A stretch of DNA of 64,000 nucleotides, from positions 248,001 to 312,000 of the forward strand of contig AP039689.1 in assembly GCA_051599415.1 (NCBI GenBank). Direction: 5' to 3'. The notes below the pieces were generated by a model that was given only the letters and a program-made list of their open reading frames with translations, had not been told where the DNA came from and ran no database searches. The stretch's first letter is position 1. The number at the start of each line of letters is the position of its first letter. Origin of the DNA: Savitreella phatthalungensis (Eukaryota). The position numbers and the translations under genes are program-made. Of this stretch, positions 3,280-23,551 are shown one piece after another.

Positions 3280-4398
3280 TCATAGGTACAATAGCACATC
3301 GTCTACCCAATTCACAAGATCATGACCTCCCCAGACAGCCTCCAAGTGAACGAGCGCGTCATTACGCGTCCGTGTCTCTACACCACCACCAGCAAGCTTC
3401 CGCTCCACGGTATGTTTCTGCTTCAGCGCAACAAGTTCCTCCCCGTCCTTCGCAGACGCCGGATCCGCATGTGTTGCCGTCGTGGCATTTCCATATACGG
3501 CTTGTAGGGCGGTAGCGAAGAGGGCTTCGCTGTTGGCGGCAGGAATATCGGTGTCGTGAGTTGCATGAACGAAAGCCATGGGCACACCGCTCTTAGCTAG
3601 CTTCCTTACCCTTTCAGCACTGTCCCAACGGTCAACGAGCTGACCTGCGACGAAATCCTGCAGCTTCGGAATCGTTCCCAGCGGCCCCAAGATCGGCAGC
3701 ACTCCACCAAGCCTGTACCCTCGCACCACACTATCGCCAGAGAAAAATCCAGCGCTCGCAACAACGCGCGACAGCACCGCCATATCACTAGTACCCACTA
3801 ACGCCTCAGCCGCGCCGAGCGCGACAGCAGCACCAAGCGACTGCCCTAGTACAGTCACGCTCCGCTTACCAAACCCGTTCGCCTTGGCCCATCTGATACT
3901 GGCAACGGCGTCTGCAATCAGAGTCTCCTCTGTCGGAGTGCCTTGGAAACCGGCTGTTGCGGCACCGAAGCCGCGGTAGTCGAGTGCAAGGACGTGTACG
4001 CCATCGAGCATTGTGAGCAGCCGGTAGGTCGTGAGCCTGTGTGGTACGGCGAGCGTGCCAGCGGTCCCGTGCAGGAAGATGACGAGCTTATCAGCCTTTC
4101 GCACGCGGAGACCATCCTCCGACCCTCCTCGAGCCCGGACCAGCGGACCGATGTGCCAAGCGTGTGCGCCCTCCACAGCATTCTCAGATCCATCGCCGTT
4201 CAAGAAGAACGACCGCGACCGTGAAGGCAGGAACCCGTGTACAGAGGGATCATTAGTAGGGGTGAAGAACGGGTACCGGATACCATGCAAGTACAACACA
4301 TGCCGTTGAGCAACAGGATGCAGCAGCACACCCACAAAGCACACGTACACGGCGCCGAAGATCGTCAGCCACCGCTGAGCTCGCGATAAGAGCGTCAT
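3280..4398 (-). CDS. ABHD12/Bem46-like membrane-anchored alpha/beta hydrolase
   Basis: N-terminal TM helix, FLHGTAG, DYRGFG, nucleophile elbow GQSLG, HATHDTDIP, GGHD. First ATG at 4398. Confidence 0.85.
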   Translation of the reverse strand: MTLLSRAQRWLTIFGAVYVCFVGVLLHPVAQRHVLYLHGIRYPFFTPTNDPSVHGFLPSRSRSFFLNGDGSENAVEGAHAWHIGPLVRARGGSEDGLRVRKADKLVIFLHGTAGTLAVPHRLTTYRLLTMLDGVHVLALDYRGFGAATAGFQGTPTEETLIADAVASIRWAKANGFGKRSVTVLGQSLGAAVALGAAEALVGTSDMAVLSRVVASAGFFSGDSVVRGYRLGGVLPILGPLGTIPKLQDFVAGQLVDRWDSAERVRKLAKSGVPMAFVHATHDTDIPAANSEALFATALQAVYGNATTATHADPASAKDGEELVALKQKHTVERKLAGGGVETRTRNDALVHLEAVWGGHDLVNWVDDVLLYL

Positions 4399-4625
4399 TG
4401 GCTCTATCGTCCTTCTCCTCCTCGGGCGTATCCCACCTGTTGTCAACGTGTGTTTGAAGTAACGCGATCAACCATTGATTTTCACGTGATCAAACTAGGA
4501 TCAATGATATCCACTTCAGGCACACTCACAGCAGCACATATACACTCAGCCCTTCACAGACACACACAAGACAAGTGGCTAGAAGATCTATAGCTTAGTC
4601 AGTCAGTGGATTTTGTCAAGCGGAA

Positions 4626-6560
4626 ATGCCTTCTGACAAGAGACCGCGCTCAGGCGCTGCAGGAGAGAGAGATCGAGCAGGAATCAAGCGCGTCAAAGGA
4701 GAGAACTTCTACAGAGATGCAAAGAAAGTCAGGCAAGTCAATCTCTTACGAGGTGGTCATGCTACGAGAGACGCTCAGGGTAACATCACTCAGGCAGCAG
4801 CATTTCAGTCGCGCGAGGCACCAAAAGCACGCATCCAGCCTGACAGGCAATGGTTTGGAAATACCCGCGTCATCGCTCAGAATGCACTCTCCCAGTTCAG
4901 AGACAACATGGCACAGCAATCGAACGACCCCTACAGCGTCCTTCTCAAGCGGAACAAGCTACCCATGTCGCTTCTCAAGCCCTCGGAGAAGATTCCGAAG
5001 CTGAAGGTCGTTGAGTCAGAGCCGTACAAGCAGACATTCGGTCCAAGTGCCCAGCGAAAGCGGCCAAAGCTCAAGGTTGGCTCGATGGAAGAGCTTGCAA
5101 CGGCAACGCACGAGGATGGTCAGGCCTTTGCGGAAAAGGCCGATGCGGCGACTGGTGAGATTGACGACTTCTCGCAGGAAGCTAGGGAGGCTGTCTTCTA
5201 CAAGGGTCAGTCTCGACGTATCTGGAACGAGCTCTACAAGGTGATCGACTCCTCAGACGTCATCATTCACGTTCTGGACGCCCGCGACCCACTCGGCACA
5301 CGCTGCAAATCAGTCGAGCAGTATCTCAAGAACGACGCACCACACAAGCACCTCATCTTCGTCCTCAACAAGTGCGACCTCGTTCCTACTTGGGCAGCTG
5401 TAAGTCATCCCATCTCACTCCTTATCGTGTCGTGTCATCTCTCAAATTTCAACCTCCAGAGTTATGTCAAGACTGCCTCGTTGAGCAGCACTAGCGATCC
5501 CATTCTTCGGAAAGGGTGTAGCCGTTGCTCTACTTCTTTGTCCCTCGAGGACAGCCTGTTACAACTCTGGGAAATTAAGCCCCTCGCCAGAGTCCTGCTC
5601 GTCTTGAGCAAGCTCGCCAGAGGAATGCTCCGACCTGCTATTGAGTTGAGGTTGCGCCCTTCCATTCTGAGAAGGTACTCCACCGTGGTCAATCTCTTAG
5701 TGCTAGGTCGGACAGCCGCACCCTCGATTCAAACCCCTGCGTGACCATCGCTCGTGACTTCGTTCCTCAAGTTTTGGGTTCACGTACTGACATCATCCCT
5801 CTAGGCACAATGGGTCCGACATCTGTCCAAGGACTACCCGACACTCGCATTCCACGCAAATGTAAAGAACTCCTTCGGTAAAGGCTCGCTCATCCAGCTT
5901 CTCCGTCAATTCCAGATCCTCCACAAGGACAAGAAGCAGGTCTCGATCGGTCTCATCGGATACCCAAACACAGGCAAATCATCCATCATCAACACCCTCG
6001 TCTCTCGCAACGACGCCGTCAAGGTCGCACCCATACCAGGAGAGACTAAAGTGTGGCAATACGTACGATTGACGCGAAAGATTTACCTGATCGACTGTCC
6101 CGGTGTCTGCCCACCGAACAAGGAGGATACAGAGACAGATATTTTGCTGCGGGGCGTGGTGCGCGTCGAGCGCGTAACCAATCCAGAGCAGCACATCCAC
6201 GCAGTCCTCGCTCGCTGCAAGCCGCACCATCTCGAGCGCACGTACGACATCTCCAACTGGAACAACGACCCACAGCGCTTCCTCGAGCTTCTCGCCCGCA
6301 AGGGCGGAAAGCTGCTCAAGGGTGGCGAGACGGACGAATCCGCCGTCGCCAAAATGGTCCTGAACGACTTCACCCGCGGCAAGATCCCCTGGTTCGTTCC
6401 ACTTGAGGAGCGTGTCGCGAAGGAGGAAGCCGATCAGGAAGAAGCTGCCAAAGCCCAAGGCGACACATTCACGCAATTCCCTGATGAGCATGATGCGGAA
6501 GCGGAAGACGACGAAGACGACGACGAAGATGAGAACAATGATGCTCCGGCAGAAAACTGA
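4626..6560 (+). CDS. NOG2: Nucleolar GTPase Nog2; exons 4626-5399 and 5805-6560
   Basis: NGP1NT domain ([25 protein letters not shown]), [23 protein letters not shown]. Intron 5400-5804 (GTAAGT...TACTGAC...CTAG) joins PTWAA to [18 protein letters not shown] in frame. Confidence 0.96.
5452..5717 (+). ncRNA. snR191: Intronic box H/ACA snoRNA, snR191/U19 orthologue
   Basis: Hairpin 1 (CCAGAGTT 5456-5463 / AACTCTGG 5563-5570) with pocket GTCA/GTTAC and H box AAATTA at 5572. Hairpin 2 with pocket GAGT/TAGT and ACA at 5712-5714. Pockets are complementary to LSU helix 69 GUAACUAUGACUC. snR191 lies in the NOG2 intron in S. cerevisiae. 5' end approximate. Confidence 0.88.
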
Positions 6561-21765: not shown

Positions 21766-21839
21766 AGCTATCAGTTCCTTCCAATCAATCGCCTTCTTAC
21801 CCGTTCTGAACAGCCTCCAGCAGCAAACAGCCTCCACCA

Positions 21840-23528
21840 ATGCACCTCGCTCAAGTACAAAAGGCAAAGGATGATACCCACAGTGCTTCTTCTTCAGAAG
21901 ATAAGCAAGAGTGGAGTACCACAGTCTATGGATCAAAGGAAGCTGCACGAGATCTACCTGCTCACGAGATGCGTGAGGAGGAAATGCCCTCTCACATTGC
22001 CTACCGCTTGATCCACGATGAGCTTGCTTTGGACGGCAACCCTTTCCTCAACCTTGCCTCATTCGTCACCACCTTCATGGAGCCAGAAGCAGAGAAGCTG
22101 ATGCAGGAAGGGTAAGTCATCACCCTCCGGAAGATCTCCCAAACAGACATCTCCTCCCACCTCAAAAACCCTCCGACTGACAAATCATCAGAATGGCAAA
22201 GAACTTCATCGACGCTGAAGAGTACCCAGCCACCACAGACATCCAGAATCGATGTGTCAGCATCATCGGTAACCTCTTCAACGTGCCCGAACAATCTGAT
22301 GGCGGAGAGCCCGTAGGTGTCTCGACCGTCGGCTCATCTGAGGCTATCATGCTCGCTGTGCTTGCGATGAAGCGACGTTGGCAGAATCGGCGCAAGGCTG
22401 AAGGCAAGGATTGGTCTCGTCCTAACCTGGTCATGTCGAGTGCCGTCCAGGTCTGCTGGGAGAAGGCGACGCGATACTTTGAAATCGAGGAGCACTGGGT
22501 AAACGTGACAGAGGAGAGGTACGTGCTCGACCCCCAGAAGGCTGTTGACCTCGTGGACGAAAACACGATCGGCATCTGCGTCATCCTAGGACTCACCTAC
22601 ACCGGCCACTACGAAGACGTCAAGAAAGTAGACGAACTCCTCCGAAAGAAGAACGAAGAACAAGGTCTACACTGCGTCATCCACGTCGATGCCGCCTCAG
22701 GAGGGTAAAGTTAACCCTCTCCCTTGCCTTCCCTGACCGTTTACTGACCGACCAAACAGATTCGTCGCACCGTTCGTGTACCCGGAGCTCGAGTGGGACT
22801 TCCGCCTGCCGAGTGTGGTCTCGATCAACACGTCTGGCCACAAGTACGGATTGACGTTCCCTGGTGTTGGATGGCAGATCTGGCGGAGCGGAGAGTACTT
22901 GCCCCAGGAGATCCGCTTCACGATCAACTACCTGGGTTCCGACCAGGTATCGATGACGCTCAACTTCTCGAAAGGTGCATCCCAGGTGCTCGCGCAGTAC
23001 TACCAGCTCGTCCGCCTCGGCAAGTCTGGATACCGGGCCATCATGAAGAACCTGACTGCGGACGCCGTCTATCTGGCCGACAAGCTCGAAGCCTCCGGCA
23101 CCTGGACCATCATGTCTGCTCGTGGGAAGTTGGGATTGCCACTCGTCGCATTCCGCCTGACCCCGACCGCCGGCGGGACTCGCCACTACGACGAGTTTGA
23201 CGTTGCTCGAGAACTCCGACAGCGCCAGTGGATTGTTCCTGCGTACACGATGGCTCCTGATGCTTCCACACTCAAGATGATGCGGATCGTCTTGCGTGAG
23301 GACTTCTCACGCTCGAGATGCGACCTCTTCCTCAGAGATCTCGCAGCCTCGATCGCACACCTCGATTCCCTCTCACACGACCAAGTCCAGTCGTCCAGGG
23401 ACGCTCACGCCTCCCGAGCATCCTCAGGTCCACACCATCGCTCACACCCGAAACACTCACCACAACAACATCGTCACAAGGATCACCACTCACTTCAGAA
23501 ACACGGCAAGACTCACGGTATCTGCTAA
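21840..23528 (+). CDS. GAD1: Glutamate decarboxylase; exons 21840-22111, 22192-22704, 22760-23528
   Basis: LDGNPFLNLASFVTT, STVGSSEAIML, IHVDAASGG, PLP lysine motif SINTSGHKYG. Introns 22112-22191 and 22705-22759 restore the frame. Confidence 0.95.
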
Positions 23529-23551
23529 ATTAGTGACATATTCTTTTTGTT

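Follow-up and report, generated by a model that had tools for sequence, protein, structure and literature searches.

A putative double-guide box H/ACA snoRNA of the snR191 type in the long NOG2 intron of Savitreella phatthalungensis

In Saccharomyces cerevisiae, the box H/ACA snoRNA snR191 (RF01263; HACA_42 of the fungal snoRNAome) is encoded in the intron of NOG2 and serves as a double guide for the two helix-69 uridines, 2258 and 2260. Its release is splicing-dependent, with 3' trimming by the nuclear exosome (10.1101/2022.02.02.478905), and the RNA, the conservation of which has been described from yeast to humans, makes pseudouridines 2258 and 2260; their loss disturbs frame keeping and IRES-driven translation (10.1101/2024.02.02.578723); U19 has been paired with snR191 as its ortholog (PMC5499648). 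According to PMC8476143, 249 of 263 fungi have snR191, and 170 of these 249 share the conserved intron position; the eight intron-poor fungi studied, ascomycetes as well as basidiomycetes, all have the NOG2 intron at a conserved site. The models of that work were built from fungal snoRNAome alignments, and the word Rfam is absent from its main text. Rare losses and relocations of snR191 have been recorded (PMC4202332, PMC5033589). In Trichophyton rubrum, Trnc_4006 is a 251-nt intronic H/ACA RNA of RF01263 that was cloned as cDNA and has a predicted target in the helix-69 region of 25S (PMC3890542). Both snR191 pockets have been predicted for Taphrina deformans, the hairpin 2 of which is predicted to keep the budding-yeast rRNA target (PMC5824354; compared here by description).

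Savitreella phatthalungensis is a Taphrinomycete, of the same fungal class as T. deformans, and has been placed close to Protomyces and Taphrina (PMC8877625). The papers listed for the genus Savitreella are, judged by titles, all taxonomic, and the genus is not mentioned in the supplement of PMC8476143 as available. The window analysed here (the whole stretch of DNA, 64,000 nt) contains the NOG2 gene of this organism with an intron of 405 nt, which very probably encodes the double-guide box H/ACA snoRNA snR191 (vertebrate U19/SNORA74). Vertebrate U19/SNORA74 (RF00090) has a non-coding transcript, not NOG2, as its host, its model is shorter (201 positions), and it gave no Rfam match here. The candidate RNA shares with S. 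cerevisiae snR191 the NOG2 intron and a similar length (the Rfam model has 273 positions vs about 263 nt here), and is also close in length to the 251-nt T. rubrum cDNA, but outside the pockets and boxes it is too diverged to score with the snR191 Rfam model. An earlier note on this DNA had proposed a snR191/U19-type snoRNA in the NOG2 intron, and the host, the boxes, their spacing, both pockets and both targets support that proposal. What is read from the sequence itself is the intron, both stems and the boxes, together with perfect pairing of 4+5 and 4+4 bases at the two uridines of the helix-69 loop.

The NOG2 gene and its long intron

The following features of the host gene were located in the window.

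4626..5399, + strand: NOG2 coding exon 1, 258 codons, with the NGP1NT domain (Pfam PF08153, E=9.9e-51)
5400..5804, + strand: spliceosomal intron hosting the putative snoRNA, 405 nt, phase 0, with a GTAAGT 5' site and a TAG 3' site
5785..5791, + strand: branch-point sequence TACTGAC of the NOG2 intron
5805..6560, + strand: NOG2 coding exon 2, 251 codons and stop, with the MMR_HSR1 GTPase domain (Pfam PF01926, E=2.8e-16)

Splicing out 5400-5804 gives a 509-aa product that is identical, letter for letter, to the public NOG2 protein of Savitreella phatthalungensis (P0001, labelled pre-60S export GTPase), and rebuilds the conserved VPTWAA/AQWV motif of NOG2. Most of the GTPase domain is encoded by exon 2, and the NGP1NT domain by exon 1. 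By protein comparison only, the exon junction, which follows residue 258, corresponds to residue 260-270 in Saccharomycotina proteins, and its position is compatible with the exon1-intron-snoRNA hybrid of about 1100 nt reported in yeast (10.1101/2022.02.02.478905). When the intron is retained, the frame stays open for 114 codons past the junction and ends at a stop at 5742. ORF 4599-5744 is misleading because the unspliced frame continues to this stop, and the earlier note was right that the ORF track misreads the intron as protein.

The length of 405 nt given for this intron in the same note was reproduced (5400-5804, GTAAGT, TACTGAC and TAG in order). Its accompanying statement, that most other introns are about 50-80 nt, agrees with the four introns elsewhere in the window that were checked by reading-frame joining (47, 55, 66 and 80 nt); the agreement covers these four, the wider heuristic list (44 candidates) being mostly noise and too noisy for a size distribution. 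From the supplement of PMC8476143, mean intron lengths of about 64 nt for Protomyces (279,120 nt in 4,358 introns) and about 79 nt for Taphrina (232,880 nt in 2,959 introns) were calculated. The NOG2 intron is long for its fungal group.

Two further observations were made in the window. A gene at about 21800-23530 on the + strand has two short introns, 22112-22191 (80 nt) and 22705-22759 (55 nt; 5' site GTAAAG), and its product is presumably glutamate decarboxylase; a 241-nt intron candidate at 22519-22759 was rejected, the actual intron there being that of 55 nt. Separately, a TCACGTGA-type palindrome lies at 4482-4488, in the interval that separates NOG2 from a divergent hydrolase-like ORF (3280-4467) and about 144 nt ahead of the NOG2 start.

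The predicted H/ACA RNA and its probable helix-69 targets

Folding of the intron gave, in order, a hairpin, an H box, a hinge hairpin, a second hairpin and ACA, with the elements listed below.

5455..5717, + strand: predicted mature H/ACA snoRNA, about 263 nt, the ends placed from the folds (base of hairpin 1 to ACA+3)
5455..5571, + strand: hairpin 1, -41.3 kcal/mol, z=-2.38, with 3/200 shuffles as good
5456-5463/5563-5570, + strand: lower stem of hairpin 1, 8 bp, perfect
5470-5480/5546-5557, + strand: upper stem of hairpin 1, starting directly above the guide strands, with a long apical extension
5466..5469, + strand: pocket 1, 5' guide strand GTCA, pairing with UGAC after the target U
5558..5562, + strand: pocket 1, 3' guide strand GTTAC, pairing with GUAAC before LSU U2240
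5572..5577, + strand: H box AAATTA, beginning 14 nt after the first base of the 3' guide strand, one of three ANANNA in the intron
5579..5628, + strand: extra hinge hairpin, 50 nt, z=-2.03, 7/200 shuffles
5630..5711, + strand: hairpin 2, -30.1 kcal/mol, z=-2.05, 8/200 shuffles
5630-5636/5705-5711, + strand: lower stem of hairpin 2, 7 bp, perfect
5648-5654/5690-5696, + strand: upper stem of hairpin 2, 7 bp, with one U-U mismatch between it and the guide strands
5643..5646, + strand: pocket 2, 5' guide strand GAGT, pairing with ACUC after the target U
5698..5701, + strand: pocket 2, 3' guide strand TAGT, pairing with ACUA before LSU U2242
5712..5714, + strand: ACA box, beginning 14 nt after the first base of the 3' guide strand, one of four ACA in the intron

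This is the hairpin-hinge-hairpin-tail fold of a box H/ACA snoRNA, consisting of two stems with internal loops and an additional hairpin in the hinge. Both boxes follow directly behind stems, the H box (ANANNA) behind that of hairpin 1 and ACA behind that of hairpin 2. In both hairpins a bipartite pocket lies 14 nt from its box, which is inside the 14-16 nt expected of the class and the pocket-to-box spacing of 14-15 nt described for H/ACA RNAs (PMC5499648). All motifs named in the earlier note for hairpin 1 (GTCA, GTTAC, and AAATTA at 14 nt) and hairpin 2 (GAGT, TAGT, and ACA at 14 nt) were found at the positions given there, each set within a real stem; the hinge hairpin (5579-5628) is absent from that note. 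Folding stability is modest, in the three hairpins as in the whole RNA (z=-1.73 for the latter, equalled by 10/200 shuffles), and keeping both pockets open costs 3.4 kcal/mol.

The organism's own LSU carries the target GGGAGTAACTATGACTCTCTT, and 1417 uridines in its own LSU, SSU, 5.8S, U2, U5 and U6 were scanned against each pocket. Counting Watson-Crick pairs only, the top site of pocket 1 was LSU U2240 with 9 pairs (4+5; the runner-up had 6), and that of pocket 2 was LSU U2242 with 8 pairs (4+4), the latter being the only site among the 1417 with at least 3 Watson-Crick pairs on each side of pocket 2. U2240 and U2242 are two uridines of the helix-69 loop and, by sequence context, are taken to correspond to yeast 2258 and 2260. 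The assignment of the two helix-69 uridines as targets, which the earlier note had made, thus ranks first of 1417 for both pockets as judged by Watson-Crick pairing alone. The guide duplexes are short in both pockets; when G-U pairs were allowed, two sites exceeded U2240 and three exceeded U2242 by pair count, all of them with at least one G-U pair. The match of an H69-like 13-mer on contig C7 is due to chance and does not mark rDNA.

The hinge hairpin is built on a 10-nt direct repeat (5583-5592 and 5613-5622), which produces a symmetric 4x4 internal loop (5586-5589/5616-5619). This loop pairs 4+4 by Watson-Crick pairing around the organism's own 5.8S U26, its only 4+4 match among the RNAs scanned. 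That match was noticed post hoc; random 4+4 strand pairs drawn from the intron found some target in 558 of 20,000 trials (2.8%), and no box was found 14-16 nt behind the loop. The loop may be a plain consequence of the direct repeat, and a triple-guide snR191, in which the hinge hairpin would form a third guide module with a middle pocket lacking a box at the usual distance, is considered highly improbable.

Chance, similarity searches and alternative readings

Short motifs may come together in an ordinary long intron by chance, and the region could also be coding read-through as in the ORF track. Each motif is just 3-6 nt long, the frame is open well into the intron, and the hairpin-1 motif alone matched 54 places in the genome, against 140 for the control, which is not significant; with so many matches of a single motif, only the combination of two pockets is informative. 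For this combination a loose grammar was defined (4+4 guide strands with a box 13-16 nt away, folding ignored), the patterns being written from the observed motifs and the targets and host having been fixed beforehand by knowledge of yeast. Both pockets with their boxes in order occurred in none of 20,000 dinucleotide shuffles of the intron (the hairpin-1 motif singly in 204 and the hairpin-2 motif in 461). The grammar matched 3 of 2544 tiles in the window, all three overlapping at the NOG2 intron locus, and the two-pocket pattern had a single match in the 12.7-Mb genome, again the NOG2 intron, with none for the reversed control. No second copy of the snoRNA sequence was found in the genome. 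Read-through would moreover end at 5742, short of the portion of the GTPase domain encoded by exon 2, while the spliced product is the conserved protein. Chance or read-through is accordingly hardly credible as an account of this locus.

The earlier note had named a covariance-model hit with snR191/U19 as a check, the failure of which would count against it, and here the outcome was negative. Searches of the genome with RF01263 (snR191; 28 of 163 first-look candidates scored) and RF00090 (SNORA74; 31 of 422 scored) gave no match at E<=10, so that neither gathering cut-off (46 and 71 bits, respectively) was reached. In a cmscan of a 291-nt stretch of the intron, neither snR191 nor SNORA74 nor any other snoRNA family appeared at E<=10, and nothing in an Rfam scan of the window reached its gathering score; a mir-1388 match over the intron was rejected as a generic hairpin (20.6 bits vs a cut-off of 58). 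We read the Rfam miss as an effect of sequence divergence from its seeds, given that neither the pocket test nor the shuffle test depends on them and that other alignments underlie the published survey of fungi. The RNA is therefore assigned as a snR191 ortholog by host, boxes and targets, and not as a member by Rfam score. The same miss would fit a decayed remnant, in which the motifs persist but the RNA has ceased to be produced or to function, the guide being supplied by another gene, and relocations of snR191 are documented in Candida parapsilosis and Kazachstania africana (PMC4202332, PMC5033589). Against such decay, the guide strands (all four), the boxes and the lower stems of both hairpins are intact, no other locus with the two-pocket pattern was found in the genome, and the emptied C. 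parapsilosis intron is too short for the RNA (PMC4202332, PMC5033589), unlike the 405 nt here; we regard a remnant as very improbable. A further reading would leave helix 69 to hairpin 1 alone, with hairpin 2 idle or directed elsewhere, for instance to U6. Predictions for a wide range of Pezizomycotina assign snR191 hairpin 2 to U6 (PMC5824354), pocket 2 here pairs just 4+4, and G-U-rich sites, e.g. LSU 556, pair with it over more bases. However, the sole site in the organism's own U6 with 3+3 pairs or better lies in a shifted register with 4 of 8 pairs G-U, on which grounds U6 was rejected as the target of hairpin 2; U2242, in contrast, is alone in its Watson-Crick pairing on both sides of the pocket, and an rRNA site is predicted for hairpin 2 of T. 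deformans (PMC5824354). A division of this kind between the hairpins is very unlikely.

Other NOG2 loci were drawn from a metagenome scan (the best 80 of 505 matching stretches, a choice favouring uninterrupted matches; 227,598 bases). None of the 80 had a long intron at the NOG2 junction, and the two-pocket grammar was absent from them; the motifs flanking the junction were both present in 54, at a spacing of 69 nt in 52 and 132 nt in 2, and the 80 loci are transcripts or genes without the NOG2 intron. A 195-nt contig (5512-5706, depth 2.3) was rejected as a sign of expression, the run being only guessed to be RNA, the contig giving no start, end or level, and the lack of cover over the exons being uninformative. 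It lies wholly within the predicted RNA (3.4% for random placement) and has 3 letter differences, the two listed of which (5666 and 5667) are in the apical part of hairpin 2.

Under the preferred reading of a double-guide snR191, and by analogy with S. cerevisiae, the snoRNA would be transcribed within the NOG2 pre-mRNA, set free once the intron is spliced out and debranched, and trimmed to about 263 nt. The mature RNA would be bound by the H/ACA protein set Cbf5, Nop10, Nhp2 and Gar1, and LSU U2240 and U2242 (yeast 2258 and 2260) would be converted to pseudouridine as in S. cerevisiae. A single transcript would then yield both a late-60S GTPase and a guide for that subunit.

U5 genes in the rDNA repeats and significance of the findings

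Outside the window, the following was noted.

C27:4550-4663 (L090:751-864) to 87700-87813, rRNA strand: U5 snRNA copies, one per rDNA repeat (Rfam)

The Rfam U5 matches of the genome, 12 in number (48 of 365 candidates scored), all lie in the 12 tandem rDNA repeats of contig C27, which have a period of about 7,557 nt. Within the rDNA unit, the match is full length, on the rRNA strand, and reaches 69.9 bits against a cut-off of 40, and it starts 110 nt past the end of the LSU (25S) match. A pattern scan of the genome with the loop-1 15-mer (at most 1 mismatch) found the same 12 places and none else, and the Sm site of U5 is the variant found in the U4 of this genome. The 110 nt between 25S and U5 fold as one long hairpin (z=-5.73, 0/200 shuffles), which we take to resemble the RNase III stem of the 3' external transcribed spacer. 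U2, U4 and U6 are single genes elsewhere in the genome, and no 5S was found in the rDNA repeat with Rfam. In a comparison of upstream sequences, U2 had a TATA element at -32 and U4 and U5 had none. U5 may either have a promoter overlapping the 3' end of 25S or be processed from a polymerase I transcript. In the rDNA intergenic spacer (L090:860-1560), a motif of 7-8 nt ending in GGGTGG occurs 13 times on one strand, at irregular spacing, from the 3' end of U5; these motifs could be terminator, fork-barrier or enhancer sites. As judged by titles and abstract starts among the part of the matches listed, no literature report of U5 in a fungal rDNA unit was found.

Although spliceosomal introns are present, Rfam U1 (RF00003) had no match in the genome (41 of 198 candidates scored), probably because U1 has diverged too far or because the first look missed it. 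Rfam searches can thus overlook real genes in this genome.

For snR191, the present result gives a correct annotation where Rfam gives none, and extends a published pattern by one species. The record for this species seems to be new, and the location of snR191 in the NOG2 intron was already known. The suggestion of the earlier note that this pairing of host and snoRNA is ancient in ascomycetes holds and had been published; its range is too narrow, as smuts and Malassezia share the pairing (PMC8476143). The frame-keeping and IRES role of both pseudouridines in yeast is not extended by the present data. After T. deformans, S. phatthalungensis is one more Taphrinomycete the hairpin 2 of which keeps the rRNA target, here the match at LSU U2242, in contrast to the U6 target predicted for many Pezizomycotina (PMC5824354). 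From a lineage represented by these two species only, the rRNA target of hairpin 2 would be the older condition in ascomycetes, and that of U6 in Pezizomycotina a derived one. The presence of U5 in every rDNA repeat could matter far more than the snR191 annotation: if U5 is cut from an RNA polymerase I precursor, a spliceosomal snRNA would be produced in this organism as part of the pre-rRNA.
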